A DNA stretch of 64,000 nt from a virus. The notes beneath the pieces are model-generated. The model did not search any database. It saw only the letters and a program-made list of their open reading frames with translations, and was not told where the DNA came from. Shown here piece after piece: positions 4,744 to 23,966 of this stretch (the stretch's first letter is position 1; each line of letters begins with the position of its first letter). The stretch is from IMG/VR virus record IMGVR_UViG_3300042301_002170; one strand, 5' to 3'. Made by a program: the position numbers and the translations under genes.

Positions 4744-4766
4744 CAATTAAAAATTACTATATATAG
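4737..4766 (+). pseudogene. Truncated fourth MLTI-family start (MLTIKNYYI*)
   Basis: ATGCTAACAATTAAAAAT start matches the three upstream genes, then TAG after 9 codons. Confidence 0.5.
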
Positions 4767-4771
4767 TTAAT

Positions 4772-5389
4772 ATGACACTCAACGTTTTCAATAAGCAAAT
4801 TCTAACTCCTCCAAAATGTGGTTCACGTTTTTTAGATGAAGTGTATGGTGTTGATAGAGAATATGTTGATTTGTTTGATATAATAAAAGTTCCACTAACT
4901 TCAAACGTTAAATGGATAGTATTGAGAAATCCATCCGATTTACTAATATCCGCATTACATACGGAGTTTATAGAGCGTTGGAATAAAGAAGGTAAATCTT
5001 TATTAGGTGGTTGGAGTAAAGAGGATAAATCTTTAAAAGAAAAAAAACTGTTAGATGGTATTATGAAGATTAATTCCAACTCACATTGGCATCATCAATT
5101 GTTTAAATATTTGTACTTATTTGGAGTCTCTTTACCTACACCACCTACTATCGTAATGTTGGATGATTTAAACGATTTTCTAACCAAAGAAATGGGTATT
5201 GAAAAATTACCTATTTTTGATGAAACAAAGTATAATTTCTCAAACGATTCAATATGGTTATCTAAATCCGAACTAAAATTGTATTTAATTGAAACATATC
5301 CCCAACAATGGGTTGAAATCAATACTTTGTTAAAAACTGATGAATTATTTTGGTATAAGATTCAAAACCAATTTCCCATTTGGAAGTAA
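4772..5389 (+). CDS. Sulfotransferase-like protein (PxKCGSR family)
   Basis: PPKCGSRFL resembles the 5'-PSB loop and WIVLRNP..L.SA the 3'-PB motif; paralog of 18788..19366 and of the C-terminal domain of 9638..11596. Confidence 0.5.
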   Translation: MTLNVFNKQILTPPKCGSRFLDEVYGVDREYVDLFDIIKVPLTSNVKWIVLRNPSDLLISALHTEFIERWNKEGKSLLGGWSKEDKSLKEKKLLDGIMKINSNSHWHHQLFKYLYLFGVSLPTPPTIVMLDDLNDFLTKEMGIEKLPIFDETKYNFSNDSIWLSKSELKLYLIETYPQQWVEINTLLKTDELFWYKIQNQFPIWK

Positions 5390-5491
5390 CTATCAATAGA
5401 ATCTATCTTAACGACCAAAATTTTCTTTTTGACTTTGGTTTACCCCCCCAACCCCCTCCCCAAAATAATTAAAATATATTTCAGAAAAGAC

Positions 5492-5522
5492 TTGACTTTG
5501 ATTGCGGAATTTTGTATCTTTA
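5492..5522 (+). promoter_or_regulatory. Bacteroidota-type promoter (early)
   Basis: TTG(5492)-N20-TATCTTTA(5515). Confidence 0.65.
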
Positions 5523-5563
5523 CTATGTAGTTCGGGTTGAGCTACTTTAAACCCCTTTCCGAT

Positions 5564-5923
5564 ATGAGCTTACCATTTAACCTTGCTTCCGTTTTAGAAA
5601 CCTCTTCTTTAGTTGAGGGTTATTCTGTTATTAAATCTGCTTTCCCTGTTAAGGGTCAGTTTGTTGACCGTACGATTACCTACACCGAAGCAGTATTTGA
5701 TGCTTTGGCAGATGTTGCTGAAGATTACCAAGACTGGCCTGAAGACCAGGGTTTTGGTTCATCTGATATGACTTATGTTCGTAAGTCGTTTATCGATTCG
5801 ATGATTTCAATTGCTAACCTACGTGGTTATTACGAAACCAAATTCCAACCCTACCTCAAAGTAGTTGAGTATTCAGAAGTTGAGTACCACGAACAACAAC
5901 TTCGTAGAGAGCAGGGATTGTAA
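5564..5923 (+). CDS. Hypothetical early protein (119 aa; start ATG 5564)
   Basis: AAACCCCTTT leader; the track GTG/TTG start lies in the leader. Confidence 0.7.
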   Translation: MSLPFNLASVLETSSLVEGYSVIKSAFPVKGQFVDRTITYTEAVFDALADVAEDYQDWPEDQGFGSSDMTYVRKSFIDSMISIANLRGYYETKFQPYLKVVEYSEVEYHEQQLRREQGL

Positions 5924-9539: not shown

Positions 9540-9641
9540 ATGAGTATTATTATGATACCATTTGTTTTAATAAGTGCGATTATAGTATCATTTGCAACAA
9601 TACTTCATTTTGGAATTTGGTGGATTAATAGAAAATTATGA
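9540..9641 (+). CDS. Small hydrophobic peptide (33 aa), not in ORF track
   Basis: MSIIMIPFVLISAIIVSFATILHFGIWWINRKL*; ATGA overlap with the start of 9638. Confidence 0.45.
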   Translation: MSIIMIPFVLISAIIVSFATILHFGIWWINRKL

Positions 9642-11596
9642 GTGATTTGAGTTTTAATTTGGTTTTTGATAATTTTGAAGAAAACGGAAACCCAATTCCT
9701 AATGGGTTAGATATTTCCAAATTAGGGGCAAAAAATAGCGATTGGAATTGGATTACATACGACCCAAAATTAAATCAAAAATTTTATAAAGTAAATGATG
9801 TTACTACAGATGCCAATTTTTTCTATGTAGTTTCCTACAATACTAATCAGTTAAAAGATATATTAGATGATACGTTTATAGTATCAAATGAAGCAATAGA
9901 GTGTTGCAAAAATAAAAATTTAAAAATTTTATTTGTAAACTTTCATGAGGTAAATGATGAAGAATTTTATGTATTAAAACGGATAGTTAAATATATATCG
10001 GATTTAGGATTGGATGAGAATAATTTTTACTATATAAACAATAATAGCAAATTAAACGTATATAAAAAAACACTAAATAGTAAAATTAACACATATACTT
10101 CTGTGTCTCTATTTGAAATGCTAGCAAAAAAATTAAATAGAAACAAACCGGTTTTTAAAGAAGATAAGGAATTTTTATTTTCATGCCATAATAGAGCAAC
10201 AAGAAAACATAGACTTGAAATTTTATGTTTTTTAAAAAAATATAATATATTAGAAAATACCGATTGGTCATTTATAGATACTTATCAAGTTCCACTTCAA
10301 CAAATTCAGTTGGGCGAAATAACTGGATATTTTACATTTGTAGCCGATGAAATTGATTGGCTTAAAACGGTAGGATTAAAATATTCTAAATATGAAGTTG
10401 GTAAATTAGATTTACTTCAATTAGATGGTGGGCATATTACCAATGTAGTTACACCAGAATGTTACATAAATTGTTATATTAATATTATAACCGAAACAAA
10501 TTTTTACATACCAGAAATACACATATCTGAAAAATCATTTCGTCCATTTTATTATATGCAATTGCCAATATTTCTTGCAACGGACAGACATGTTGAAAAT
10601 TTAAGAAAAAAATTTGGATTTGATATGTTTGATGATTTAATAGACCATAGTTACGATTTAGTAAGAAATAACCAAAAACGTATGAAAATGGTTTTTGAAG
10701 AAATAAAACGTTTAAATGATAATAAAGATTTAGTAATTGAATTTTATAAACAAAATAAACATAGATTTGAAAAAAATTTAGAGTTGTTTCAAACAGCATA
10801 TAATAAAGAAGAAACTATAAATTTTTTTAAAAGTTTATCAAATAGAAATATTAACATATTAGATACTATAGATGATATAAATAAAAATATTAAGAAAGCA
10901 AATAATATGAATGATGTAGATTTAAATTTTAAAGGTGATGGTTTTAAAATATATCACGATATAATTGTACCAAACAAATGTGGTACGAGATATTTAAGAG
11001 AATATATTTCATTAAATACGGATGATGATTACAATACTCCAATTGATATAGAACATATTTGGGATTTTCCTAATTTAAATTGGATTGTAATTAGACATCC
11101 TGAAGAATATTTAAAATCTGCTTTAAAAACTGATTTAATAAGTGTTTGGAATAATACTCCTAAGTTAAATGAATTAGATGTAATAAACAGATATTTAAAT
11201 GATGGTACAAACCATTATTTTAATAATCTATATAAAACATTATATTCGTACTCTTTAGATAATAAAAATAAAAAATTTGTTTTTTTAAAAGATTTGAGTG
11301 ATTTTTGTTTATTTAGATTTGCTAATATGAAAAATTATAGTTATGATTCAACTAAATATAATATGGTAGGTAAATATTATATGGACATAGAAACAATAAT
11401 TGATTATGTAAAAGAGTTTTATCCATCTCAATGGGATACTATTCAGTTAAATTTAAAAAAAGAAATGTTTTTTTATAATAAAATAATTGAAAATTGTATT
11501 TTTTTTAATAAAATATCACATCCTCCCATAATTGTTAAAAATCAGGAAACTATTAAAGAAGTTATTGAAAAAAATAGTTGGTTAAAAACTATATAA
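9638..11596 (+). CDS. Glycosyltransferase-like (GT10/GT-B-related) domain fused to sulfotransferase-like domain
   Basis: N-part FSCHNR..HR, INIITET..ISEKSFRP..QLPIF (GT10-like TEK..P motif); C-part PNKCGTRYL / WIVIRHP. Confidence 0.55.
   Translation: MSDLSFNLVFDNFEENGNPIPNGLDISKLGAKNSDWNWITYDPKLNQKFYKVNDVTTDANFFYVVSYNTNQLKDILDDTFIVSNEAIECCKNKNLKILFVNFHEVNDEEFYVLKRIVKYISDLGLDENNFYYINNNSKLNVYKKTLNSKINTYTSVSLFEMLAKKLNRNKPVFKEDKEFLFSCHNRATRKHRLEILCFLKKYNILENTDWSFIDTYQVPLQQIQLGEITGYFTFVADEIDWLKTVGLKYSKYEVGKLDLLQLDGGHITNVVTPECYINCYINIITETNFYIPEIHISEKSFRPFYYMQLPIFLATDRHVENLRKKFGFDMFDDLIDHSYDLVRNNQKRMKMVFEEIKRLNDNKDLVIEFYKQNKHRFEKNLELFQTAYNKEETINFFKSLSNRNINILDTIDDINKNIKKANNMNDVDLNFKGDGFKIYHDIIVPNKCGTRYLREYISLNTDDDYNTPIDIEHIWDFPNLNWIVIRHPEEYLKSALKTDLISVWNNTPKLNELDVINRYLNDGTNHYFNNLYKTLYSYSLDNKNKKFVFLKDLSDFCLFRFANMKNYSYDSTKYNMVGKYYMDIETIIDYVKEFYPSQWDTIQLNLKKEMFFYNKIIENCIFFNKISHPPIIVKNQETIKEVIEKNSWLKTI
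10523..10750 (+). repeat. Direct-repeat blocks, copy 1 (copy 2 at +4082 nt)
   Basis: 51-nt (10523-10573), 35-nt (10619-10653) and 47-nt (10704-10750) stretches identical to 14605-14655, 14701-14735, 14786-14832. Confidence 0.85.
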
Positions 11597-11615
11597 TTTG
11601 ATATTTAAATATGTT

Positions 11616-11918
11616 ATGAATATATCGGTTTTAGACACATTTGAAAGAGGTTATGTTAAGTTGGATTGGAACGAGTATATAAATCGTGTCCAATTAACAT
11701 TAGAACATATGGAAACCATTGTAGATATGATTGATACTTTTAAATTATCAAAATCTGCAAAAGAGTTGGTTGTATTTAGGTTTGAAAACATTCCCGCATA
11801 CATCACTATAAAAAAAGATGAATATCTAAATTTACTAAATTGGATATACGATAAAGCATTAGAACTTGAAATATACGAATTGTGTAAGAAAGTCATGGAT
11901 GTAAAAACTTCTTTATGA
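11616..11918 (+). CDS. Hypothetical protein (100 aa; start ATG 11616)
   Basis: Tiling ORF; C-terminal W..KALELEIYELC motif. Confidence 0.7.
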   Translation: MNISVLDTFERGYVKLDWNEYINRVQLTLEHMETIVDMIDTFKLSKSAKELVVFRFENIPAYITIKKDEYLNLLNWIYDKALELEIYELCKKVMDVKTSL

Positions 11919-12154
11919 ATAAAATAACAGAAATAGCAGTAAGTTGGTGGAGAGCTGAAAATCCTACAAAGGAACAATCTGATTTAGCACAAAAACGATT
12001 GGATATTTGTGTAGGTTGTGATTCACGTAAAGAATCAATTGTGTTCGGATTTGTATGTGGGGAATGTGGTTGCCCAATAGGTAAGAAAATATTTACACCT
12101 AAGTTGGGTACCTGTGATTTAAAAAAATGGAACAACATAGAAGGATTATCTTAA
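11915..12154 (+). CDS. Cys-rich small metal-binding protein (DUF6171-like)
   Basis: RLDICVGC..10..CGECGC..13..CDLKKW; six Cys. Confidence 0.6.
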   Translation: MNKITEIAVSWWRAENPTKEQSDLAQKRLDICVGCDSRKESIVFGFVCGECGCPIGKKIFTPKLGTCDLKKWNNIEGLS

Positions 12155-12192
12155 AATCTTATATTTATGGGTATAAACAAAACTAAATAATT

Positions 12193-13575
12193 ATGAAGAG
12201 TGTTTTAATCGGTGTAGATTATATTAAGAATACGGATGGTATAAAATTATTAGAATTAAATACGGATATTCAAATATCAAATTTAAAAGCTTCTTATTTT
12301 GACCACGATGTGTTAATGCAGTATCTTGCAACAAATAACCTAACAAAAATACACATTATATATAAGGAAATATACACCTCTCCGTTATTTATTGGTACTT
12401 TAAAAGAAAAATGTTTAACAAATAATATTGAGTATTTTGAAACTAAAATTAGTGTTAATAGTATTTTGATTGATGAGATTGCGGATGATACCGAAACTTT
12501 ATTTTTAAGATTAGCATACAATGCACAGGCGATATTAGATGAGTATTATTGCAGAGAAAATGGTGAATTGATTAATTTACTATTTGAAAATGGAAAGGAA
12601 TCTTATATACCTAAAACATATTTACAATATTCTAATGAACTTTTACATGATAATGTTGATTCTATAAATAATAATGGAAATTATCCAAATATAATAGTTA
12701 AAAAAAATTATTCAGATGCTAATAAAACGTTATATCCTGCGTTTTATAATCTTTCAAACGAAACGGAACTAAACAATTTAAAATCAAATTTACCAAACAA
12801 TATATTTTTACAAGAGTACTTATTTTCTTCTGAAAATATTGAATCTGATTTAATTGTAAATCATATTAGAAAATGGTATATTATTGCAAACTCTATGGAA
12901 GATGTAGTTGATTGTGGTGGATATTTACATTCAAACCAAGTTCCGTTAAATAACGATAACATTAATTATACCGATAGTAAATTGGATAATGCAGGTAGAG
13001 CTATGTTTTACTCTAATCCAAATAGATTATCATCTGCGGGTGTTATTTCCCATTATAAAGTTAATAAGTTAGATAGTGAGCAAAACTATCAACCAATCGA
13101 AGTTTCTCAAATTGAATATGGAGATACAATACAGGCATTAAACATTGATACATTAGATGTTGATATGGCTGAATTAAAAATGTTAGAATGGAGATATACT
13201 GGTTCGGTTGAGGATTTAATGACATATACCACCGCATCTGTTGTTAGAAATATTAAATATGATATAGAAGATTGGTTCAATAAAATTGAATATATTAGTG
13301 CAAATCAAACAACTGGTTCATTTTTATTACAAATGAACAAAATGGTATTAACTGAAAAAGATGGTATCGTTAAATTTACAAACGCGCAAGATTTAGAAGT
13401 TGGTATTAATGTTTTTAACACTACTAATAGTGTTTCTGCAATAACGGCGGTAGGTAACGAATATTTTTCTGGTTCAATATATTTACTAGATATAGAACCT
13501 ATTGATGTTTTTATAGCGGGAACTGCTGATAATGAAATTCTTAATTCAACAATAATAATGCATAACTTTAAATAA
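12193..13575 (+). CDS. Circularly permuted ATP-grasp-like ligase fused to C-terminal Hint (intein-like) domain
   Basis: N-terminal GVDY..DG.KLLELNT, IPKTY, IIVK, FLQEY; residues ~283-458 show Hint blocks (IEVSQIEYGDTI, AQDLEVG, IYLLDIEP..VFIAG, IIMHN). Confidence 0.6.
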   Translation: MKSVLIGVDYIKNTDGIKLLELNTDIQISNLKASYFDHDVLMQYLATNNLTKIHIIYKEIYTSPLFIGTLKEKCLTNNIEYFETKISVNSILIDEIADDTETLFLRLAYNAQAILDEYYCRENGELINLLFENGKESYIPKTYLQYSNELLHDNVDSINNNGNYPNIIVKKNYSDANKTLYPAFYNLSNETELNNLKSNLPNNIFLQEYLFSSENIESDLIVNHIRKWYIIANSMEDVVDCGGYLHSNQVPLNNDNINYTDSKLDNAGRAMFYSNPNRLSSAGVISHYKVNKLDSEQNYQPIEVSQIEYGDTIQALNIDTLDVDMAELKMLEWRYTGSVEDLMTYTTASVVRNIKYDIEDWFNKIEYISANQTTGSFLLQMNKMVLTEKDGIVKFTNAQDLEVGINVFNTTNSVSAITAVGNEYFSGSIYLLDIEPIDVFIAGTADNEILNSTIIMHNFK

Positions 13576-13576
13576 T

Positions 13577-13687
13577 ATGGCACAGAATATAATACAAATC
13601 AATAGACCCGTAACTTCTACACAAAACACAACTTGTTTAAATATAATTACTGATATAATTTCTTTAATTAAAGCGAAACACAGTTAA
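13577..13687 (+). CDS. 36-aa peptide, not in ORF track
   Basis: MAQNIIQINRPVTSTQNTTCLNIITDIISLIKAKHS*; fills the gap 1 nt after the upstream stop and 11 nt before the next ATG. Confidence 0.65.
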   Translation: MAQNIIQINRPVTSTQNTTCLNIITDIISLIKAKHS

Positions 13688-13698
13688 TATATTTTTAT

Positions 13699-14988
13699 AT
13701 GAGTGAATCTGTTATAAATTTGGTTTTCGATAATTTCGACCAAGATGGAAATCCTATTCCAAATGGTTCACATATTACAGAATTAAAAGCAACATTATCA
13801 AACGAGTTTTTAAACAAAAACTCATTGAGAAATTTTAATTTTAATATAAAAACAAAATTCTATCACATAAATGATATTACTAACGATGATATATTTTATT
13901 ATATAGTCGGTTACACCACTACTCAGTTAAAAACAATATTAGACGATACATTCATACTATCTAATGAAGCAATAGAATTTTGTAAAAATAAAAATTTAAA
14001 AATTTTATTTGTAAATTTTCATGAAGTAAATTATGAAGAATTTTATTCATTAAAACAAATAGTTAAATATATTTCATATTTAGGATTAGAAGAAGATAAT
14101 TTTTATTATATAAATAATAATAGCAAATTAGAAGAGTATAGAAATATATTAAACAGTAAAATCCATACATATAATTCTATGGTTTTATTTGAATTTATTG
14201 CAAATATATTATGTGAAACTAAAACATTTTTTAAAGAAAATAAAGAATTTTTATTTTTATGCCATAACAGAATTTTTAAAAAACATAGAATTGAAACTTT
14301 ATCTTTTTTAAAAACACACAATATATTAGAAAATACAGATTGGTCAAATTTAAATCAACAGTATAAACATGTAGTCTCCGAAAAATACGCACTTGGCTCG
14401 CGGCGTGGGGAAACTATGGATATACAAGAAGATAAATCAATTTCAAACAAAATAGGATTAAAATATTCTAAATACGAAATTGATAAAACGGATTTACTTC
14501 AATTAGGTCAACCGGAATTTGGCGTTGCGGTTACTCCTGAATGCTATTTAAATTGTTATATTAATATTATAACCGAAACACTTTTTTATTCTACAGAAGT
14601 ACATATATCTGAAAAATCATTTCGTCCATTTTATTATATGCAATTGCCAATATTTGTTGCAACACGCAATCATGTAAAATATTTGAGAAAACAATTTGGT
14701 TTTGATATGTTTGATGATTTAATAGACCATAGTTATGATTTAGAAATAGACCATATAAAACGTATGAAAATGGTATTAGAAGAAGTAAAACGTTTAAATG
14801 ATAATAAAGATTTAGTAATTGAATTTTATAAAAACAATAAAGATAGATTTGAAAAAAATTTAGAGTTGTTTCAAACGGCATGTAATAAAAAAGAAACTTT
14901 AAATTTTTTTAAAAATATTAATACATTAAATAAAATAAATGACACTAATGATTATTTTGATAAAAGCCAAAAGAAATCATTAGTGTAA
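13699..14988 (+). CDS. Glycosyltransferase-like protein (paralog of the 9638 N-domain)
   Basis: FLCHNR..HR, INIITET, ISEKSFRPFYYMQLPIF. Confidence 0.6.
   Translation: MSESVINLVFDNFDQDGNPIPNGSHITELKATLSNEFLNKNSLRNFNFNIKTKFYHINDITNDDIFYYIVGYTTTQLKTILDDTFILSNEAIEFCKNKNLKILFVNFHEVNYEEFYSLKQIVKYISYLGLEEDNFYYINNNSKLEEYRNILNSKIHTYNSMVLFEFIANILCETKTFFKENKEFLFLCHNRIFKKHRIETLSFLKTHNILENTDWSNLNQQYKHVVSEKYALGSRRGETMDIQEDKSISNKIGLKYSKYEIDKTDLLQLGQPEFGVAVTPECYLNCYINIITETLFYSTEVHISEKSFRPFYYMQLPIFVATRNHVKYLRKQFGFDMFDDLIDHSYDLEIDHIKRMKMVLEEVKRLNDNKDLVIEFYKNNKDRFEKNLELFQTACNKKETLNFFKNINTLNKINDTNDYFDKSQKKSLV
14605..14832 (+). repeat. Direct-repeat blocks, copy 2
   Basis: Identical to the blocks in 10523-10750 at a constant offset of 4082. 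Confidence 0.85.
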
Positions 14989-15545
14989 TGTATAATCAAA
15001 AAATAATTTTTAATGAATTAGAATGTAAACAAATTTTATCAGAATTTGTTGGAAATAATCACGTTGCTTACAAAATTCGCTATGATGGTGTTTTTTATGA
15101 AAAAGGATGTAGCGCTACTTCACATGATTTAAAATGGGATTCAAATAATAAATGGATTTTTAATAAAATTAAAAATTGGACAGATGAATTAAATTTGGGT
15201 TTAAAATGGAAAAAACCACCATCTGCAAGTTTTAGAAAATATAAAAAAGGAGATTTTTTTTTAAAACATACGGATGATGTAAAAGGTGATTATGTTAGAA
15301 GTGAAAGAGGTATTAGAATTTTAACAATAGGAATACAGTTAAATGATAAATTAGATTATTTTGGTGGCGATTTTTTTGTGTGGGATAATAGTAATAAAAT
15401 TCATATTGGTAAATCTTTGGGCAATTGTGCATTATATACCACTAATATGCCACACGAGGTTACTGAAATAACGGAAGGTGAAAGAAATTCATTAATATTA
15501 TTTATTACAGATATGCACGCTACTTTTACTAAAAGTATAATATAA
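14988..15545 (+). CDS. 2OG-Fe(II) oxygenase (prolyl-hydroxylase/PKHD-like)
   Basis: HTD..LTIGIQLN..Y.GG.F...HEVTEITEGERNSL: HxD...H iron triad plus 2OG-binding Arg. Confidence 0.85.
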   Translation: MYNQKIIFNELECKQILSEFVGNNHVAYKIRYDGVFYEKGCSATSHDLKWDSNNKWIFNKIKNWTDELNLGLKWKKPPSASFRKYKKGDFFLKHTDDVKGDYVRSERGIRILTIGIQLNDKLDYFGGDFFVWDNSNKIHIGKSLGNCALYTTNMPHEVTEITEGERNSLILFITDMHATFTKSII

Positions 15546-15546
15546 T

Positions 15547-16221
15547 ATGAATAAACTTTGGACATTTGGGGATAGCTTCACTGCAGGTCATGGTTGTACT
15601 TCAGAATTTGAGTATTATAAAAAATATTATAAAGAAGGTGATAAACTTTGGGCTGAGTTACTTTCTGATGAATTAAATTTAGAATTATCAAATATTGGTA
15701 AAAGTGGTGCAAGTAATGATTATATTATAGATTCTATAATTTTAAATTGGAACAAAATAAAACAAAATGATTTTGTTGTAATAGGGAAAACATTTAGTTA
15801 TAGATTTGATGTGCCAATAAAATCAGAAAAATCTATTATCGATACAATATCTAATAGTTGGCAATCACTTGGTATTTCTGAAAGAGAATTTAGAACAATT
15901 GGGTCACCTAATTATGTGGTTTTGGATAATGTAAATGAAGAATTTGAAACAATTATAAATTTTAATTATCATTTTGCGGCAAATCCATTGTATAAAGAAC
16001 GACAAGATTTAAGATATGACTTCTTAGTAAATGAGTTGGAGCAAAAACAAATTAAAGTTTATTTATGGGATATTGAGTCCTCACACAGAAAACTAAAGTT
16101 TAACACCATAAAAATGGATACTAAAAATGAAATAGATGACGGTCATTTTTCTTTTAAAGGACACATTGAATTTTATAGATGGATTTCTAAAAAAATAAAA
16201 AATGAAAATAAAATAATTTAA
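15547..16221 (+). CDS. SGNH/GDSL-fold hydrolase or acyltransferase
   Basis: FGDSFTAG block I, GKSGASND block II, DGH block V. Confidence 0.7.
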   Translation: MNKLWTFGDSFTAGHGCTSEFEYYKKYYKEGDKLWAELLSDELNLELSNIGKSGASNDYIIDSIILNWNKIKQNDFVVIGKTFSYRFDVPIKSEKSIIDTISNSWQSLGISEREFRTIGSPNYVVLDNVNEEFETIINFNYHFAANPLYKERQDLRYDFLVNELEQKQIKVYLWDIESSHRKLKFNTIKMDTKNEIDDGHFSFKGHIEFYRWISKKIKNENKII

Positions 16222-16281
16222 ATATGTTATGAAAATAATAAAAATAAATACACGAACCTAAAAGTAAAATCAATTATTTAA
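16222..16281 (+). pseudogene. Start-less relic 3' end of a tagged gene (ICYENNKNKYTNLKVKSII*)
   Basis: The 60-nt spacer is fully open in the upstream gene's frame and ends in the cluster tag KSII* just before ATG 16282. Confidence 0.4.
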
Positions 16282-16980
16282 ATGGAAATACATCATTTTG
16301 GGGACAGTTATTGTTTTACTAATATGGGACCTGTGTTTTGTCAAATTATGGCAAAAAATATTGAATACCAATATAATCTGTATGGACGAAGTGGATACTC
16401 TAATGAACAAATAATTAATAGTGTTATAAAAAATTTAGATAAATTTAAAAGTGGAGATAAAATATTTATAAATTTTTCATTTTTTACAAGAGGGTGTTGG
16501 TATGATGATAAATCTAAATCAATACAATCGTTAAATACGTTTTATAATGATTTAAAAAAAACAAAAAAGGATTTAGGACAAATACAAATTGAAAAAATAA
16601 TGCCATTAGTTGATTATTATTTGGTAAATACTGAAGACAACGCAAGAAAATTATTCACTATAATGGATTCCATTTTTGAATATATTGAAAAATTAGGTGT
16701 AAAAGTATTTTACATATTTGTAGATGAGTATGATTGGTCAGATGAATTATTAAACAATGGAATTAATATTAAATTTAAAAATGGGTTTGGATTTTGGTTA
16801 AAAAAGAATAATTTTCATTTAGGTACGGATGGACACTATACAAAAGGAATACAAGATATGTTAGCAGATATTATACTTAAAAAAACAAATAATTTAGAAG
16901 AAACAATTAATAAAAAGATTAATATAGATATGGTAGATGTTAATTTAGAATTAATAACAAAACCATCAAAAATAATTTAA
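16282..16980 (+). CDS. SGNH-fold protein
   Basis: FGDSY, GRSGYSN, DGH motifs. Confidence 0.65.
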   Translation: MEIHHFGDSYCFTNMGPVFCQIMAKNIEYQYNLYGRSGYSNEQIINSVIKNLDKFKSGDKIFINFSFFTRGCWYDDKSKSIQSLNTFYNDLKKTKKDLGQIQIEKIMPLVDYYLVNTEDNARKLFTIMDSIFEYIEKLGVKVFYIFVDEYDWSDELLNNGINIKFKNGFGFWLKKNNFHLGTDGHYTKGIQDMLADIILKKTNNLEETINKKINIDMVDVNLELITKPSKII

Positions 16981-17547
16981 ATGGTAATTACAATTTTAGC
17001 AGAACCCAGAAGTGGTTCAACCAATTTAACAAATTGGTTTTATTATAATAAAAATTTTACCACATTATTTGAACCATTAAATCCTATGTCAAAGTGGTTT
17101 CAAAAAGATATACCCCCAATCAATTATCTGTACGATACTGAACATTTATGTATCAAAGAAGTATATTATCCACATAAGGATTGGGAGGATATTATAGAAG
17201 TATCTAATAAAATAATTATATTATATAGAAACGATTACACAAAACAATTAGAATCATTTTTAAATGCGGTAAGAACCTCCAATTGGGGCGGTGAATATAT
17301 ATACAAACATATTGATACAACATTTATTAAAGAAAATACTGATTATTTTAATGAATTAAAAACTAAATTTAAAGAAAAATACATAGATATGGATTTTTTT
17401 AAAATATCATATGAAGAATTATATAATGAAAACGGATTTCAAAAAATAGTTGATTATATCAATTTAGACTGTGTTGAAAATAAAAATTTTCCATATGGTC
17501 AAAAATACCGCATAGAATTTAATGAAAAATCCAAAACTTTAATTTAA
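16981..17547 (+). CDS. Sulfotransferase-like protein (Stf0-like P-loop)
   Basis: AEPRSGST 5'-PSB loop, FEP, ILYR..QLES, ISYEEL. Confidence 0.65.
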   Translation: MVITILAEPRSGSTNLTNWFYYNKNFTTLFEPLNPMSKWFQKDIPPINYLYDTEHLCIKEVYYPHKDWEDIIEVSNKIIILYRNDYTKQLESFLNAVRTSNWGGEYIYKHIDTTFIKENTDYFNELKTKFKEKYIDMDFFKISYEELYNENGFQKIVDYINLDCVENKNFPYGQKYRIEFNEKSKTLI

Positions 17548-18786
17548 ATGGAAATACAATTCTGGTACTGTGATTTTTATTCTAATTATACAAATATTAA
17601 AGAAACAATTCAAAAAATAGATAATACTATTTTATTTAAAAATATTTCTACTGATAAGATAGACCCCACAAAATTAAATTTTTTAGTTTTTTTATTAGAA
17701 ACTGAATGGGAAAATTCAGATGCCGATAAAATTAAAGGATTTTCAAAAAATATAAAAACATCAAATACCAATTCTAATGAATTTATAAATTTATTAATTG
17801 AATTACAACATAAAAATTTTTATTTTTTAATGGATAATACCGGAGAGGCTGTGCTTTGGTTGGACGAAAAATATTTAAATTTTATTAATAAATTAAACAG
17901 AAATAAAATTGATTCTAATAGATTAATTATTGCAAATAATGATTCATCTGATATTGGTATAAATAAAAGAAATAAGTATAATCCAATCCATAACTTAGCA
18001 AAATATGGTAGTTTTATATTAAATACGTGTTTTTTTCCTAAATTTTTTTTATCAACCTATAATCATATGAGTGGTTATATTGAAGATATTACTATTAAAA
18101 CGGTAATCAAACCAGATAAAACATTTTTATGTTTGAATAGAAGAATGAATTTTAAAAAATATCAAATTATTGAAGAATTATTTAATAAAGGGTTATTAAG
18201 AGATACTCGATTTACTTGGGTACACAACGCGGTACCCACTAATCGAATAAATAAAAAATTATTATCAGAACTAAATATAAATGTAGATAACTTTAAATCA
18301 ATTCAATTGGAAGATGATGTAATGTATGGTAGTCAATTATCATATTTAGATGAGTTTTTATACACCATAAACCCAAACTGGTATTATAAAAGTAAAGTTA
18401 ATATCATAACAGAAACTATGTTATATAAAAATTCAATACACCTTACAGAAAAAACATGGAAAGCAATCTATTTAGGTGTTCCATTTGTTATATATGCACC
18501 ATCAAAACATTACCTTAAAACATTAAGGGATATGGGATTTAAAACATTTAATTCGGTTATTAATGAGGACTATGATGAAATGGATGGTGATGGTAAAATA
18601 AAAAAAATTATAGATAGTGCATTAGAATTATCAAATATTTATGATAGTAAAGAAGTATTAGAAATATGTAAATTTAATCAGGAATTATATTTTAATTTAG
18701 AGTATCGTAAAAAAATATATAAAGAAACTTTTTTAGACAAACTATATGATATTAAAACCACATTTGTTTCTAAAACTTTAATTTAA
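17548..18786 (+). CDS. Glycosyltransferase-like protein (third GT10/GT-B-related paralog)
   Basis: FLCLNRR, VNIITET, LTEKTWKAI..GVPFV, LRDMGFKTF..VINEDYD. Confidence 0.6.
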   Translation: MEIQFWYCDFYSNYTNIKETIQKIDNTILFKNISTDKIDPTKLNFLVFLLETEWENSDADKIKGFSKNIKTSNTNSNEFINLLIELQHKNFYFLMDNTGEAVLWLDEKYLNFINKLNRNKIDSNRLIIANNDSSDIGINKRNKYNPIHNLAKYGSFILNTCFFPKFFLSTYNHMSGYIEDITIKTVIKPDKTFLCLNRRMNFKKYQIIEELFNKGLLRDTRFTWVHNAVPTNRINKKLLSELNINVDNFKSIQLEDDVMYGSQLSYLDEFLYTINPNWYYKSKVNIITETMLYKNSIHLTEKTWKAIYLGVPFVIYAPSKHYLKTLRDMGFKTFNSVINEDYDEMDGDGKIKKIIDSALELSNIYDSKEVLEICKFNQELYFNLEYRKKIYKETFLDKLYDIKTTFVSKTLI

Positions 18787-18787
18787 A

Positions 18788-19366
18788 ATGGATATAAAAA
18801 TATATAATAATACAGTAATGGTTCCAGTAAAATGTGGTAGTAGATATTTGGATAAAATTTGGGAAAGTGAAAGAGTTAAATTTAATCATTATGAATACTT
18901 AGAATTTCCAAAAGTGAAATACATTGTGGTGAGAGACCCAATGAGTCATTTGATAACGGCACTACACACAGAAACGCTTGAATTTATAAATAAGTCAGGA
19001 GAAATAAATAATTTTTATGAAAAACTAAAAGAGTTTATTAGTCCGCATAATGACACTCATGGTGTTGCGCATTGGTGTGTTCGTTTTTATGAATACTTTT
19101 ATTATTACAAAAAAAAATATGGTGAAGATATTCAAGTAGTAAAATTAGAAAATTTAACCGAATTATTAAAAAATTTAGGTTATACCATTGAATACAATCC
19201 GGATGAATATAATTTTAACAACTATAAAATATGGTGGTCAAAAGAAGAGTTATTTCAAATATTAAAAGATACACATCCAAATGAAATTAATTGGTTAATA
19301 GATAAAGTTGCAATTCAAAATGTTTATTATAACAAACTTTTAAATAACAATTCCAGTTTAATATGA
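18788..19366 (+). CDS. Sulfotransferase-like protein (PxKCGSR family)
   Basis: PVKCGSRYL, YIVVRDP..L.TA. Confidence 0.5.
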   Translation: MDIKIYNNTVMVPVKCGSRYLDKIWESERVKFNHYEYLEFPKVKYIVVRDPMSHLITALHTETLEFINKSGEINNFYEKLKEFISPHNDTHGVAHWCVRFYEYFYYYKKKYGEDIQVVKLENLTELLKNLGYTIEYNPDEYNFNNYKIWWSKEELFQILKDTHPNEINWLIDKVAIQNVYYNKLLNNNSSLI

Positions 19367-20124
19367 AATCTATAAAGTATTGGAAAAAAGATGAGTTCGA
19401 TGTTGCTACCTATAAATGGAATTTAGCGGAAAGACGAAATCAAACATTTAATGGCTCTGGTTCAGATGAAAGTGGAACTAATGTTTACACTTATAACGAA
19501 ATGGGATTTAGAGGAGATTCAATTTATAAAGATGGATTTAGAATTCTATCAGTTGGTTGCTCTCATACAGAAGGAGTTGGTGTATCCGATAATCAAACCT
19601 GGCCTCATTATTTTTCAAGATTAATAAAAAAAGGAGTTGATTTAAATGCTGGCTTTGGTGGCAGAAGTAATGATTATATAACAAGATGTGTAGTTTCATT
19701 GGTAGATACATTTAGACCAAATATTGTAAACATTATGTACACATACCCATCGAGAAAAGAATATTATAGATATGGTGGAGAATTAGAACCATTTCATATG
19801 AATCCGTGGGGATATTTTGAAGAAAACAACGAAGGTAAAGAAGAATATAAAGCAATTGCCAGAATAACACATGATGAAAATGATTTAATAAATTGGTATA
19901 AGAATCATTTGTTGATAACGAATTTATTACAAAATAAAAAAATACCATACACTTGGAACGGTTCTTTTTTGAATGATGATAGTGTAATGGATGATTATAG
20001 ATTCGATGGTGAGTATGGTAACTTTAGAGAATTCTCAATAGATGGTAAACATGCAACTGATATTCACAACGAAGAATATGCTAATAAATTGTTTGATTTT
20101 TGTAAACATAAAAAGTTAATTTAA
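19363..20124 (+). CDS. SGNH-fold protein
   Basis: GCSHTEG, N.G.GGRSND, DGKH. Confidence 0.65.
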   Translation: MKSIKYWKKDEFDVATYKWNLAERRNQTFNGSGSDESGTNVYTYNEMGFRGDSIYKDGFRILSVGCSHTEGVGVSDNQTWPHYFSRLIKKGVDLNAGFGGRSNDYITRCVVSLVDTFRPNIVNIMYTYPSRKEYYRYGGELEPFHMNPWGYFEENNEGKEEYKAIARITHDENDLINWYKNHLLITNLLQNKKIPYTWNGSFLNDDSVMDDYRFDGEYGNFREFSIDGKHATDIHNEEYANKLFDFCKHKKLI

Positions 20125-20125
20125 T

Positions 20126-20156
20126 TTGTTAATTTCAAAAACTTTTCGTATCTTTG
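20126..20156 (+). promoter_or_regulatory. Bacteroidota-type promoter
   Basis: TTG(20126)-N20-TATCTTTG(20149). Confidence 0.7.
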
Positions 20157-20159
20157 GAT

Positions 20160-20477
20160 ATGATTATAGTTCCACAAACACCCATAACAGAATCTAGCTT
20201 TCAAAAATGGAAGTCTCATAGATTAGAAGTAGAAGATGGTATCGATTCATACCACTACTATGTAATTCCTTTAATTGATATTGATGAAGAAGAAATACCA
20301 GATATAGAAAGAATACCTGCATTATTTAGTTCCGAATCTGATGCGTATTTTAATGATGATGGTAAAGCAGAATATACTTTACGATTATTCGATGATGACC
20401 TGCCTGAATTAGAATTTGAAGAGGAGGTTGAAATACTTTATAAAATTTTAACAAAAAAAGAAATTTATTTAAAATAA
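20160..20477 (+). CDS. Acidic hypothetical protein (start ATG 20160)
   Basis: ORF immediately after the promoter. Confidence 0.7.
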   Translation: MIIVPQTPITESSFQKWKSHRLEVEDGIDSYHYYVIPLIDIDEEEIPDIERIPALFSSESDAYFNDDGKAEYTLRLFDDDLPELEFEEEVEILYKILTKKEIYLK

Positions 20478-20478
20478 C

Positions 20479-20509
20479 TTGGAAAAGTTAAAAATATTTC
20501 GTATATTTG
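20479..20509 (+). promoter_or_regulatory. Bacteroidota-type promoter
   Basis: TTG(20479)-N20-TATATTTG(20502). Confidence 0.7.
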
Positions 20510-20546
20510 ATTTATCTTTTTTACTATACTTAAACTTTAAAGCAAC

Positions 20547-21194
20547 ATGAAAGAAAAAACAGAACAAGAATTAGAAGCAAATTACAACAAATTTATAGAA
20601 ATCCTTAAAAAATACTTTACAGGAGAAAGATTAGAAAAGTTGTTGTTTATGTATTCTCCAGACGAGTTAGGATTAAATCTAACGGTCTCTCCAGCATCCG
20701 GTAACAAAGGATTCCATAATGCATACGATGGTGGATATATTGACCATATTTTTAATGTTTGTAAGAATGCTCTAAAAGTAAAAGAGTTATTTGTATCAGC
20801 GGGAGGTAAGATTGATTTTACAGATGAAGAATTATTATTTGCAGCATTGCATCATGATTTAGGTAAATTAGGAATCAAAGGAGAGTTACACTATGTAGCT
20901 AATGATTCAGATTGGCACATTAAGAACAGAGGTGAGTTTTATAAACGTAATGAAAATATTACATTTATGACAATTACTGACAGAACTTTTTATACTCTTA
21001 ATCATTATGGTATTATTTATAATGAAAAAGAATATTTTGGAATTAAACTTACAGATGGTTTATTTGATGAAGATAATGAAAAGTATTATAAAACATTTGA
21101 TTTATCCAAATCTTTAAAATACACTATTCAGTATGTACTACATTGGGCAGATTATATGTCTACCATTATAGAAAGACAAGATTTGATAAGATAA
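20547..21194 (+). CDS. HD-domain metal-dependent phosphohydrolase
   Basis: H.AYDGGYIDH, ALHHDLGK, LTDG, HWAD. Confidence 0.8.
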   Translation: MKEKTEQELEANYNKFIEILKKYFTGERLEKLLFMYSPDELGLNLTVSPASGNKGFHNAYDGGYIDHIFNVCKNALKVKELFVSAGGKIDFTDEELLFAALHHDLGKLGIKGELHYVANDSDWHIKNRGEFYKRNENITFMTITDRTFYTLNHYGIIYNEKEYFGIKLTDGLFDEDNEKYYKTFDLSKSLKYTIQYVLHWADYMSTIIERQDLIR

Positions 21195-21219
21195 TAAATT
21201 ATATGACACTTTTACAGAA

Positions 21220-21240
21220 AGTATGACATTTTGTCATACT
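21220..21240. promoter_or_regulatory. Operator-like inverted repeat upstream of Hsp20 (TGACA-N3-TGTCA core)
   Basis: AGTATGACA-TTT-TGTCATACT, 9-bp perfect arms; degenerate copy TGACA-CTT-TTACA at 21204-21216. Confidence 0.6.
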
Positions 21241-21297
21241 TTTTTGTTTTGGTGTAGAAATTGAAATATTATATTTAAACTTTAAACAATTATTATT

Positions 21298-21690
21298 ATG
21301 AGCACATTCAACAGTAAAACTAGCTACAAAGCAAATTTAGACGATTTATTTTTAGATTGGGATAATCTATTCACCCACGCTAAACAAAACGTATTTTCCG
21401 ATTATACCACAAAAGAATTAGAAGATGGTAAAATTGAATTATCGGTAAATGTATTGGGACACAACCCAAAAAATATCTTATTAGAAGTAACTGAAGATAA
21501 GATTACAATTAAATCAAATAAGCCAGAAGGAGAATCTGATTTAATTAAAGATATTGATTTTAGCTTCAAATTAGGTAAAGATTACGATGGTACTAAATCG
21601 GAAGCTAAGTTCAATAATGGAGTACTTTCAATCACCATCGATAAGAAGGATGAAAGAAAGGCAAAAAAATTATCTATTAATATTAGGTAA
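21298..21690 (+). CDS. hsp20: Small heat-shock protein (Hsp20/alpha-crystallin)
   Basis: VLGHNPKNILLEV, FSFKL, AKFNNGVLSITI..K...KKLSINI. Confidence 0.85.
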   Translation: MSTFNSKTSYKANLDDLFLDWDNLFTHAKQNVFSDYTTKELEDGKIELSVNVLGHNPKNILLEVTEDKITIKSNKPEGESDLIKDIDFSFKLGKDYDGTKSEAKFNNGVLSITIDKKDERKAKKLSINIR

Positions 21691-21715
21691 TATAAGTTAT
21701 TTTTCGTATATTTAG

Positions 21716-21747
21716 AAGGTAGGAGCATTTAGTTCCTACCTTTTTTT
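21716..21747 (+). terminator. Rho-independent terminator after hsp20
   Basis: aaggtaggagc/gttcctacctt stem (one G-U), 5-nt loop, T-run. Confidence 0.75.
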
Positions 21748-21767
21748 ATAAATAAATATTTATTACT

Positions 21768-21953
21768 ATGAGTATGATGTACAAAAATCAAGTCCAAAAC
21801 CTATTGGTTGTATTGGATGGTAAATTAAGAGTTTTAGAAGGAGCAGCATCTGGTGCTATGAAACTAGAACCAAGAGATGTTATTCAATTAGTTCATGATA
21901 TTAGAAAAGTTTCCGATAGAATGGCTGAATTAATAAACATTGAAAGAGATTAA
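21768..21953 (+). CDS. Hypothetical protein (61 aa, helical)
   Basis: Tiling ORF abutting the next gene. Confidence 0.65.
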   Translation: MSMMYKNQVQNLLVVLDGKLRVLEGAASGAMKLEPRDVIQLVHDIRKVSDRMAELINIERD

Positions 21954-23024
21954 ATGAATTGGCTTAAATACTTAGTAGGTATATCTGCAATATTAGTTGC
22001 AGGATGTGCGGCTTATTTCTCTGTAACTGGTTTGGGTGTTCTTTTTGCAGGAGCATCTACTGAGGTTATGGTAATGGCGGGTTCTTTGGAATTTGCCAAA
22101 TTAGTAACTGCTACTTATTTAAAACAAGTATGGGATGACATTAAGGGTTTCAACAAAGTATATTTAACTATATCTGTTGTAATTCTTATGTTAATCACAT
22201 CAGCGGGTATTTTTGGTTATCTATCAAATGCGTTTCAGGCACAATCACTCCAACTACAACAAGTGGATAGAGAGATTTCAGTTCACCAAACTAAAATAGA
22301 CCAAAATACTACTCAAATTACTCAACTTTCTACTCAAATTACCGAATTTAACACCAATCAGGGTAAATTATTAGATGGTGGTAATGTGAATAGAAGATTA
22401 ATTCGTTCTATTGATAATAGAGATAAACAAATTGCTAAAATTAACGATAAAATCTCTAATTTACAAACCGAAAATGCTCTCGAAACTGAAAAAATCAATC
22501 AAATTAAGATTTCTAACTTAGGTTTAGAAAAAGAAGTGGGTGGATTTCGTTTTGTTGCTGATGCATTTGGTATAGAATTGAAAAATGTTGTAAAATTCTT
22601 CATTTTTATCATTGTTATAGTGTTTGACCCTCTTGCAGTAGCTCTTATTATTGCATTCAATGGGTTGGTTGGAGTAAAAATCCGAAAAGAGGAAGAAAAT
22701 TTAACAGAAAATGTCAAAAATGAAGAGGTAACTCGGACAAATTCCGAATTAGTGGATAAAATTTATCAAGTTTACGGAGATAGTGGAAAAAATTTGACAG
22801 AAGAGGAAAAACCAGAAATTTTAGTGGAAAATAATTTACCAACGGAAAATGAAACTTTAAGTTTACAATGGGAAGAATATATGCATCCAAATTTTCCATG
22901 GGAAAATCGTAAATTATGGATAAATAATCCAAAAGCGGTTAATTATTGGTTATCAACTAAAAAAGGTACAGTCAGAGCCTTATCTCAAATCAGAAACGAA
23001 GAGGACAATATAAAAATTTACTAA
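21954..23024 (+). CDS. Membrane protein with coiled coil
   Basis: Three N-terminal TM helices, coiled coil, further TM (FFIFIIVIVFDPLAVALII). Confidence 0.75.
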   Translation: MNWLKYLVGISAILVAGCAAYFSVTGLGVLFAGASTEVMVMAGSLEFAKLVTATYLKQVWDDIKGFNKVYLTISVVILMLITSAGIFGYLSNAFQAQSLQLQQVDREISVHQTKIDQNTTQITQLSTQITEFNTNQGKLLDGGNVNRRLIRSIDNRDKQIAKINDKISNLQTENALETEKINQIKISNLGLEKEVGGFRFVADAFGIELKNVVKFFIFIIVIVFDPLAVALIIAFNGLVGVKIRKEEENLTENVKNEEVTRTNSELVDKIYQVYGDSGKNLTEEEKPEILVENNLPTENETLSLQWEEYMHPNFPWENRKLWINNPKAVNYWLSTKKGTVRALSQIRNEEDNIKIY

Positions 23025-23028
23025 AAGC

Positions 23029-23059
23029 TTGTTTTTTTAAAATAAATTTTGTATATTTG
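23029..23059 (+). promoter_or_regulatory. Bacteroidota-type promoter
   Basis: TTG(23029)-N20-TATATTTG(23052). Confidence 0.7.
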
Positions 23060-23063
23060 TTTT

Positions 23064-23966
23064 ATGAATATAGGATATGCTTGCATCAATATGACATTAG
23101 GAGAACAGACTCCTCGCATCACTACAAATCGTAGTATGGTTAAGAAAACCTTTACTCAAAAAGGTATTTCTTATGCTTCCGAATTAGCACTACAAAACTC
23201 TCGTGATTTATTTGAGATTCTAAAATGGAATGTAGCAAATAACATCAAAATGTTTCGTATTTCATCCGATATGTTTCCGTGGGCAAGTGAATACAATTTA
23301 GAAGATTTACCCGATTACACTAAAATATCAAATATACTTAGAGGTTGTGGTACTTATGCCAAAGAAAATGGTTTGCGTATCAATTCTCATCCAGGTCCGT
23401 TTAATGTATTAGTTTCTCCTAATCCAAAAGTAGTTGCTAACACTATTATAGATTTAGAGTTACATGGTAAATTATTTGACCTTATGGGTTTATCTTTAAC
23501 TCCATACAACAATATTAATATTCATTGTAACGGTGTCTACGGAGATAAAATCTCTGCAATGGATAGATTCATCACTAACTTTGAGAAACTCTCTGAGAGT
23601 GTAAGGAAACGATTGACATTGGAGAATGATGATAAGGTATCGATGTATTCCGTTTCAGACTTAATGTATATTCATCACAAAACAGGTATTCCAATTGTAT
23701 TTGATTACCATCACCACCAATTTTGTACAGGTGGTTTATCGGAAAGACAAGCATTGTTACTTGCAACATCTACTTGGAGAAAAAGTGGAGTAACACCAGA
23801 AGTTCACTATTCAGAATCAAAGGCATTACATGAAGAAAATAGTAAACTTAAACCACAAGCACATTCAGATTATATTACTTCATTACCAAATACATACCGT
23901 ATCAATGTAGATATTATGGTAGAAGCAAAAGCAAAAGAATTAGCAATATTACCATTTATTAATTAA
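23064..23966 (+). CDS. uvsE: UV-damage endonuclease (UvsE/UVDE; start ATG 23064)
   Basis: IGYACIN, FRISSD.FPWAS, HPGPFNVL.SP, LENDD, FDYHHH, HYSES, AHSD, MVEAKAKE. Confidence 0.92.
   Translation: MNIGYACINMTLGEQTPRITTNRSMVKKTFTQKGISYASELALQNSRDLFEILKWNVANNIKMFRISSDMFPWASEYNLEDLPDYTKISNILRGCGTYAKENGLRINSHPGPFNVLVSPNPKVVANTIIDLELHGKLFDLMGLSLTPYNNINIHCNGVYGDKISAMDRFITNFEKLSESVRKRLTLENDDKVSMYSVSDLMYIHHKTGIPIVFDYHHHQFCTGGLSERQALLLATSTWRKSGVTPEVHYSESKALHEENSKLKPQAHSDYITSLPNTYRINVDIMVEAKAKELAILPFIN

Follow-up and report, generated by a model that had tools for sequence, protein, structure and literature searches.

A 10.5-kb gene island in the IMG/VR virus record IMGVR_UViG_3300042301_002170 raises the question of what a phage would modify with a large set of tailoring-type enzymes, and of how these enzymes would be brought to their substrate. 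The record comes from an uncultured T4-like phage and was analysed as one window, the whole stretch of 64,000 nucleotides, in which all genes lie on the plus strand. The island spans 9638-20124 (+) and comprises 13 packed open reading frames (ORFs), labelled A to M. Most of their junctions measure -4 to +1 nt and their GC content is 0.22-0.26 compared to 0.28-0.35 in the flanks, which upholds the tightly coupled, very AT-rich run described in an initial annotation of the sequence. Three GT-B-like (glycosyltransferase), three tentatively sulfotransferase-like, three SGNH (hydrolase) and one 2-oxoglutarate (2OG) oxygenase domains were found around a core of a six-cysteine protein (C), a fusion of a permuted ATP-grasp domain with a Hint domain (D), and a 36-aa peptide (E).

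Related loci were picked via D, and 176 of them were examined, namely 16 IMG/VR loci of the window's clade, 80 of the 309 IMG/VR loci of a sister clade, and 80 of the 120 metagenome loci of the window's clade. With these numbers the module is common, and it occurs in abundant freshwater and marine T4-like phages. In most relatives, the His-Asn that ends the Hint domain of D is followed by a Cys/Trp-rich peptide, and a tryptophan halogenase bearing the same C-terminal tag as the island enzymes is encoded as well, while in the window the peptide is cut to Phe-Lys and the halogenase is absent. We favour, at a rough probability of 0.45, the explanation that the island represents a phage module that is widespread but undescribed, here in a reduced form without the tail, and that at the centre of this module a ligase hub recruits the tagged tailoring enzymes. 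The structures of D and F and the D-E complex referred to below are all predictions.

The ligase-Hint protein and its predicted partner peptide

D is a protein of 460 aa (model pLDDT, the predicted local distance difference test, 85.6) that divides into two halves by fold. Residues 1-280 (12193..13032, +) were assigned from Foldseek matches and invariant residues as a circularly permuted ATP-grasp amide-ligase domain. The fold resembled human and yeast glutathione synthetase, GspS, YgiC and YjfC (targets 2hgs, 1m0w, 2io7, 7uk6 and 7uk8; probability 1.00, E 5e-6 to 4e-4), with template-modelling (TM) scores of 0.27-0.32 that are low as only half of D aligns. The invariant residues of D were D9, E21-x-N23, R106, K170, K197, Q207-E-Y and R226; in alignments of 11-20 sequences, E21 and N23 did not vary and K170, K197 and Q207-E-Y were conserved down to 28% identity. 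The E-x-N metal/ATP motif at residues 21-23 fits the circular permutation known from eukaryotic glutathione synthetase, which likewise has E-x-N at its N-terminus and whose K and Q-E-Y residues are conserved in D. Known relatives of this domain activate a C-terminal carboxylate. In contrast to the GspS/YgiC ligases, D has no detectable sequence similarity to that group (no Pfam match), is fused to a Hint domain, is paired with a helical peptide of 31-50 aa, and is encoded by a phage.

The second half, residues ~283-458 (13039..13566, +), was identified by Foldseek as a Hint domain with matches to the RadA intein, Tetrahymena BIL2, a C. thermocellum bacterial intein-like (BIL) domain and Hedgehog Hog (E 3e-6 to 1e-4; E 2.9e-6 for the RadA intein 4e2t; TM normalised to the target 0.56-0.73). 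It starts at the invariant Gly283 and has no conserved Cys or Ser at the domain start; the T-x-x-H block is also lacking, and the conserved Y-T-T-A-S stretch has no His. Asn458 was invariant and His457 nearly so, and an intein-like block F (D-I-E-P-x-D-V-F-I-A-G) is retained. The residue at +1 after His-Asn is Phe in the window and F, Y or R in its clade, and the sister clade has Cys at +2. A splicing intein was excluded for D because there is no residue-1 nucleophile, no T-x-x-H block and no +1 Cys, Ser or Thr. Assignment as a type-A BIL was rejected as well, since His-Asn is present but Cys1 is absent. As His-Asn is all that D keeps, its Hint domain would at most carry out what in a BIL is the C-terminal half-reaction, a cleavage at the C-terminal end of the domain itself. 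Models and comparison together show D as a Hint domain joined to a predicted ATP-dependent carboxylate-amine ligase, which is of the permuted glutathione-synthetase/GspS type.

Among described proteins, BIL domains, the Tetrahymena BUBL proteins (2lwy, 6y75) and the PT-HINT domains of polymorphic toxins share with D the Hint fold and a terminal His-Asn without a +1 nucleophile. D differs from BIL and BUBL domains in having neither a position-1 Cys/Ser nor T-x-x-H, in following an ATP-grasp ligase, and in having two residues after His-Asn. A literature search found no description of the tag, of the ligase-Hint fusion or of the peptide that partners it, and no paper that combines bacterial intein-like with ATP-grasp domains; a work on ribosomal peptides in prokaryote-phage interactions (PMC11118758) describes no phage-encoded system of such kind.

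The family of D extends to 110 close metagenome homologues, and a profile of the ATP-grasp half retrieved 324 clusters at 50% identity. In IMG/VR, the loci were found by an alignment-based scan with D, whereas a single-sequence pattern scan returned nothing. The order of domains was constant, an ATP-grasp domain preceding a Hint domain that ends in HN, and the diversity lies in what follows. Where the window has Phe-Lys and a stop codon (13567..13575, +), relatives have a tail of 2-8 aa (usually aromatic-...-Lys), a Cys-rich or Cys/Trp-rich tail of 25-120 aa, or a linker or tail plus one to three further Hint domains. These extra Hint domains are canonical and start with Cys, after a short Cys/aromatic linker or the Cys-rich tail, and the placement of a short peptide between an HN-ending Hint domain and a Cys-starting canonical one is the BUBL layout. 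The Cys-rich tail of the sister clade reads x-C-W-C-P-W-N-Y-C-G-H-W-C-x-S-x-Y-C-P-x-C...K-[LI]. In an unrooted tree of D, the window fell on a short-tail/Hint side of 13 rows, split from the Cys-tail side at 100% in the Shimodaira-Hasegawa-like approximate likelihood ratio test (SH-aLRT).

Directly downstream, E (36 aa; 13577..13687, +) starts 1 nt after the stop codon of D and consists of a Thr/Ser-rich N-terminal half followed by an amphipathic helix ending I-K-x-K-H-S. It is predicted as a partner of the ATP-grasp domain from its recurrence and from a complex model. E-like ORFs of 31-50 aa follow D in 89/91 IMG/VR loci and 41/49 metagenome loci (strict pattern), and the D-E model reached an ipSAE of 0.83 (runs 0.81-0.84) compared to 0.01 for the best of three controls, with at least 93% contact agreement between runs and a partner pLDDT of at least 82. 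Of 80 solved complexes, 58 attained the ipSAE mark applied, as did 2 of 110 mismatched pairs; these are rough counts as our own alignments were used. Binding of E to D is thus supported, rather than shown, by the model. In the modelled interface, the E helix (residues 19-32) and residues 6-12 lie on D residues 8-22, 114-138 and 217-249. The contacted D residues alternate with the invariant D9 and R226 on strands, so the helix would lie on the opposite face from these two, a placement read from the alternation and not from coordinates. In some related loci, a DUF2061 membrane protein of 69-72 aa stands between D and E; it is untagged (Pfam E 2e-15), forms family F08 in 44 loci, and is found for example at L006:11860-12069 and L007:7107-7316.

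The initial annotation had placed the 36-aa peptide in the core of a candidate tailoring pathway, and as written this was not borne out. Within each clade, E was conserved from end to end, in the sister clade also at its N-terminal I-E-R-P-x-Q-T-I-K, and with this whole-length conservation and the modelled packing of its helix on the ATP-grasp domain, E looks more like a small subunit or adapter than a classical precursor. A pathway resembling those of peptides that are ribosomally synthesized and then modified post-translationally (RiPPs) would require the reverse, with the E helix acting as a follower or recognition element for the ATP-grasp domain and the Thr/Ser-rich half being hydroxylated, glycosylated, sulfated and acylated. 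Such a role would agree with the universal presence of E beside D, with its modelled binding, and with its persistence in the tail-less clade, where another substrate is needed. Residues 13-15 and 18 (T-S-T and T) fall outside the modelled interface, and this exposed T-S-T...T stretch keeps the precursor reading alive. Microviridin-type ATP-grasp ligases are also known to be bound and activated by leader helices. We nevertheless judge this pathway to be unlikely, as the conservation of E covers its whole length instead of a recognition part beside a variable core, its inferred packing opposite the D9/R226 face fits a structural subunit, E has no Trp for the halogenase that occurs in 24/24 sister-clade loci, and few acidic residues are available for graspetide-type cross-links. 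No Pfam match of the RiPP recognition element (RRE) type was obtained in the enzymes at the thresholds used, which a divergent domain could escape; the enzymes share the tag instead. With the precursor being only a candidate, it would be premature to class the genes as a RiPP cluster.

A shared C-terminal tag on the enzymes

We sought to characterize what the island enzymes have in common beyond their position. The motif [KS]-x-[LI]-[IV] was found at the end of eight consecutive enzymes, F to M, and in 0 of the approximately 60 other genes of the window, many of which are equally coupled and which include a carbamoyltransferase, GT7-like genes and radical SAM genes. From 418 non-redundant gene ends, the consensus was K(-7)-x-x-K(-4)-[T/S/K](-3)-L(-2)-I(-1). 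When 1580 neighbouring proteins from 96 IMG/VR loci were clustered, at least 12 unrelated families proved to be 88-100% tagged, compared to 0-13% in backbone families. Among the tagged families are a tryptophan halogenase (Pfam E 2.7e-84), a radical SAM enzyme, 2OG oxygenases, sulfotransferase-like proteins and several unknowns. In metagenome loci belonging to the short-tail clade, the tag was present on 61% of island-family genes versus 6% of backbone genes. The initial annotation had named a failure of the core genes and enzymes to co-occur as grounds for refuting its pathway; across the 176 related contigs they do co-occur, and the tag tracks the ligase-Hint gene.

A nucleotide-level origin of the shared ending, such as a signal for translational coupling, a promoter or a recombination site that happens to be translated, was considered, since most tagged genes abut the next start codon and ATA is the commonest last codon, giving ATATGA and ATATAA overlaps. 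This reading was rejected and is contradicted to the point of being scarcely credible: the roughly 60 window genes that are coupled alike do without the motif, the tag is retained ahead of gaps of 29-60 nt, at the ends of gene runs and on minus-strand genes, and its codon use is mixed. Ser at -3 is encoded by AGT (43) and TCN (64), which are unrelated codons, Leu is spelled in five ways, and each of the three stop codons is used after the tag. Such mixed codon use shows selection at the protein level.

At the protein level, the tag may be compared with short C-terminal motifs that are read by one receptor, such as the peroxisomal targeting signal PTS1 (-SKL) and the PDZ class I ligands (S/T-x-hydrophobic-COOH). 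Like these, it occupies 4-8 residues at the extreme C-terminus of unrelated proteins and has a basic, a hydroxyl and a hydrophobic end residue. It differs in that no tetratricopeptide repeat (TPR) or PDZ reader is encoded near the island and that the phage system is tied to one ligase-Hint gene. The tag could also be a degron or timing signal that is read by a host or phage protease and limits the enzymes to one infection phase, with D and E as neighbours only. A short, hydrophobic-ended C-terminal motif on unrelated proteins is the classic form of a degron, and ClpXP and Tsp read C-terminal tails. We consider this improbable given the strict co-occurrence of the tag with D-E even between clades whose D proteins share just 28% identity, the untagged homologues in D-less phages of diverse hosts, and the gain and loss of the tag on C together with the D tail.

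The D-less comparison draws on the halogenase and 2OG oxygenase homologues of HTVC008M, P-SSM2, S-H38 and S-SRM01, all of which were untagged; as the related loci were picked via D, these four cultured phages are the ones in which tagged genes without D could be checked. Tandem dioxygenase/halogenase arrays in cyanophages (Syn9, P-SSM2) were previously predicted to modify peptides (Iyer et al. 2010, PMC2938197). The arrays of these cyanophages and of HTVC008M resemble the present module as clusters of 2OG oxygenase and tryptophan-halogenase-like genes in T4-like aquatic phages, and differ from it in that those phages have no homologue of D, E or C and their enzymes carry no tag.

Among the core genes, C (79 aa; 11915..12154, +) links the tag to the state of D. 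This zinc-ribbon-like protein has the six-cysteine pattern CxxC...CxxCxC...C, matches PHROG 13558 (E 3.5e-7), and occurs in 79 of the IMG/VR loci. Its six Cys were invariant in 13 homologues, and its family profile gave only non-significant zinc-finger rows against the PDB. C is untagged in the window. In the Cys-tail clade, 71/79 copies have a 17-residue extension that bears the tag, compared to 0/11 in the short-tail and Hint clades. The earlier statement that the core genes lack the tag consequently applies to the window's clade, where C, D and E are all untagged, and fails for C in the larger sister clade.

Candidate substrates of the module

We assessed how the enzyme content of the relatives varies with the tail of D. 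The halogenase was present in 24/24 loci with a Cys/Trp tail, in 8/11 loci whose inter-Hint linker contains Trp or an aromatic residue, and in 1/15 short-tail loci, and family F04 was present in 24/24 Cys/Trp-tail loci and 1/15 short-tail loci. The window follows this trend, with the fused peptide cut to Phe-Lys, the halogenase and F04 gone, and C without a tag. Because halogenase, F04 and C-tag content follows the D tail, the comparisons point to the fused peptide as the probable substrate of the tagged enzymes in relatives, and as a better substrate candidate than E. The tagged families of relatives, with tryptophan halogenase, radical SAM proteins and 2OG oxygenases, are typical peptide tailoring enzymes.

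In the explanation that we favour, a tag of approximately K-x-x-K-[ST]-[LI]-[IV]-COOH would dock interchangeable enzymes on a hub of D and E, and the docked enzymes would act on a substrate that the hub presents. In relatives, the Cys/Trp-rich peptide fused after His-Asn would be this substrate; it would be tailored first and then freed by Asn cyclisation, possibly being ligated or cyclised by the ATP-grasp domain. In the window, the fused peptide is vestigial, yet nine tailoring domains persist along with the tag, E and His-Asn, so another substrate would be required, which could be the aromatic-Lys tail, the Thr/Ser-rich exposed stretch of E (residues 13-18), or an external molecule at the hub. 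The tail-less variant also separates the hub (D, E and the tag) from the fused peptide and thereby shows the indispensable parts.

Two classes of RiPP systems are the closest known parallels. Borosins (OphMA) are RiPPs in which enzyme and precursor are fused, and graspetides such as microviridin are ATP-grasp systems. The relatives of D are borosin-like in having an enzyme with its own core peptide at the C-terminus, and graspetide-like in having an ATP-grasp enzyme modelled as binding a helical peptide amid halogenase, radical SAM, oxygenase and sulfotransferase genes. In contrast to both, the recognition tag here is on the enzymes, release would be by the Hint domain and not by a protease, and the window has no fused core.

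A broader and more tentative proposal is that the ligase-Hint protein with its small subunit forms a universal socket, for which K-x-x-K-[ST]-L-I-COOH is the plug that recruits enzymes, with enzyme sets swappable between phages and substrates in trans being served too. The trans substrate would then be E, the dipeptide-sized tail, or a virion or host molecule, and the tail-less form would show this. If the hub and plug exist as described, recognition by a tag on the enzymes instead of a leader on the substrate would be a new principle for modification pathways. The arrangement would explain the shuffling of a dozen unrelated enzyme families within one island and would offer a portable docking pair for enzyme engineering. 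To our knowledge, no substrate has been known for the "auxiliary" oxygenase, halogenase and sulfotransferase genes of such phages ever since cyanophages first revealed them.

Several observations weigh against a ligase hub with a fused peptide as its substrate. The Cys/Trp tail is missing in the window and yet the module is kept, so the tail is not the sole or essential substrate, and the SGNH family was tagged in just 38%. The correlations between enzymes and tails rest on few related lineages, the two sides of one tree, and are not independent. The Hint domain may be a purely structural remnant. Finally, glycan tailoring is an equally typical setting for GT-B, sulfotransferase and SGNH domains and for the carbamoyltransferase found nearby.

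The last point leads to the main rival, in which a glycan or a virion or host-surface component (polysaccharide, lipid-linked sugar, tail fibre or envelope) is tailored, the tag is an address, and D-E is unrelated or a scaffold. The enzyme set resembles that of Nod-factor and lipopolysaccharide tailoring, with a fucosyltransferase-like GT-B, a NodH-like P-loop and a NodU-type carbamoyltransferase, and the module outlives the loss of the fused peptide. Iyer et al. (2010, PMC2938197) connected bacterial operons of hydroxylase, sulfotransferase and 3'-phosphoadenosine-5'-phosphosulfate (PAPS) synthetase genes with tail-collar proteins and with collagen-like ones, and the island abuts giant proteins of 1307-2141 aa in four loci. 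It is difficult to reconcile with this view that the tag occurs only beside D, that the other glycan-type genes of the window and the homologues in phages without D are untagged, and that the presence of the halogenase and F04 goes with the tail of D; neither signal peptides nor membrane anchors were noticed in the enzymes, for which no formal test was made. We regard surface or glycan tailoring as rather unlikely compared to the ligase hub, and the degron and nucleotide-signal readings as less likely still.

The giant proteins, which end in SGR[VL]VV.., lie directly after the island at L001:5536-10621, L005:9468-15987, L006:14228-20653 and L014:14199-20485. In L001, L005 and L014, the next gene encodes a protein of ~380 aa ending in SGHCGWR[AT]. 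Both may be fibre-like structural proteins and would then be candidate external substrates.

Island enzymes and genomic setting

The domain calls of the initial annotation for the modifying enzymes, all on the plus strand, were mostly right, as seen from PF13640 in G, the hhalign comparisons of I and M with the SGNH family of H, and the GT-B model of F; those for the sulfotransferases stand less firmly. Pfam and PHROG searches returned nothing for A, B, D, F, I, K, L or M. F (429 aa; 13699..14988; tag KKSLV) is a GT-B glycosyltransferase-like protein by structural match, nearest to alpha-1,3-fucosyltransferases. Its AlphaFold2 (AF2) model (pLDDT 69.5) gave VIA Z scores of 10.8 to 6.9, and all 50 top rows were GT-B proteins, some of them alpha-1,3-fucosyltransferases (best match Z 10.8, root-mean-square deviation 4.8, 286 aligned); the top Foldseek match was an alpha-1,3-fucosyltransferase at E 3.7e-3. 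A (652 aa; 9638..11596) joins a GT-B-like part (residues 1-~425) to a P-x-K-C-G sulfotransferase-like part (~437-625) and ends in LKTI, a degenerate tag. Its residues 1-425 are 63% identical to F, and its C-terminal part is 24-34% identical to L-family proteins. K (412 aa; 17548..18786; tag SKTLI) is GT-B-like, with a C-terminal half that is common to A and F (E 1e-10 against F). Judging by the modelling, F, the N-terminal domain of A, and K are predicted to have the two-Rossmann GT-B fold. In the related locus L003, an 831-aa protein on the minus strand (3385-5880) consists of two F-like GT-B domains in tandem and is tagged; with the GT-B/sulfotransferase-like fusion of A, it indicates that domain fusion recurs among island enzymes.

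G (185 aa; 14988..15545; tag TKSII) is a 2OG-Fe(II) oxygenase (PF13640, E 2.5e-9; PHROG 61, E 9e-16). H (224 aa; 15547..16221; tag ENKII) is an SGNH/GDSL hydrolase-like protein that matches Lipase_GDSL PF00657 with 23.6 bits, equal to the cut-off, and had 33 homologues in the first 16 loci. I (232 aa; 16282..16980; tag PSKII) is a divergent SGNH-like protein (hhalign versus the H family 95%, E 4e-8). M (253 aa; 19363..20124; tag HKKLI) is SGNH-like, with G-C-S-H-T, G-R-S-N-D and D-G-K-H blocks; hhalign against the H family gave 87% and E 3.7e-6 over block III, and the M family profile had no match in the PDB. The SGNH blocks I (G-D-S), III (G-x-N-D) and V (D-x-x-H) were legible in H, I and M, and I and M have GDS / G-x-S-N-D / D-x-x-H blocks in common.

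The sulfotransferase identities are the weakest of the domain calls. J (188 aa; 16981..17547; tag SKTLI) has a P-R-S-G-S-T loop, and its Pfam and PDB matches were all sulfotransferases and all below threshold (Sulfotransfer_3, E 1.9e-3; NodH, 0.05). L (192 aa; 18788..19366; tag NSSLI) is a paralogue of the C-terminal domain of A; for both, the tentative assignment comes from the P-x-K-C-G loop and an Atlas lead (Sulfotransfer_2 in 20% of one neighbouring cluster), and the L family profile had no meaningful match in the PDB. An untagged adenosine-5'-phosphosulfate (APS) kinase encoded in related islands would supply PAPS and lends support to sulfation. In several loci alike, an untagged SGNH gene of ~280 aa overlaps a tagged sulfotransferase-like gene of ~175 aa by ~29 nt (L003:13480-14833, L006:12850-14170, L007:9451-10822 and L009:9388-10576). 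The two genes may form a conserved coupled pair, or a frameshift may fuse them and so tag the SGNH part.

The small protein B (~100 aa; 11616..11918, +) had no Pfam or PHROG match and ends in K-T-S-L, which is tag-like but one residue short. Its start is probably the ATG at 11616 instead of the TTG at 11598, as the alignment with its 100-aa homologues begins at residue 7 of the ORF when this is read from the TTG.

Searches against cultured phages gave zero matches for the island at the nucleotide level and zero tblastn matches for D, F and the sister-clade D. With D and F unmatched in cultured phages, there is no isolate usable as a model. Among cultured phages, Microcystis phage Mel-JY01 and the Flavobacterium "immuto" phages come closest, with only ~40% identity between their baseplate wedge proteins and that of the window, which the window encodes along with an SbcC-like nuclease and a carbamoyltransferase. 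The last, of NodU type (26884-28578), belongs with two GT7-like genes and radical SAM genes at 58082-64000 (GT7-like at 58082-60954, radical SAM from 60955 onwards) to a second, untagged set of tailoring-type genes in the window.

The octamer ATATTTAT, described earlier as a candidate late motif ahead of the ligase gene, is indeed present at 12161, 5' of D. It was not enriched in the window as a whole (17 found versus 27.8 expected), and neither was TATAAATA of T4. Nine of its 13 plus-strand copies, often in the form ATATTTAT[AT]A, precede a start codon by 8-32 nt, in most cases that of a structural gene (8122, 12161, 21756, 31467, 38327, 43282, 45262, 46486 and 51747). This position is no more than suggestive of ATATTTAT as a candidate promoter element of the phage.

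On the 3' side of the island, positions 20154-23966 encode proteins of 107 and 215 aa, an Hsp20 (PF00011, E 7e-10), and three further proteins (61, 356 and 305 aa). The gene order of this backbone block is the same in most related loci, indicating that the island occupies a fixed genomic site.

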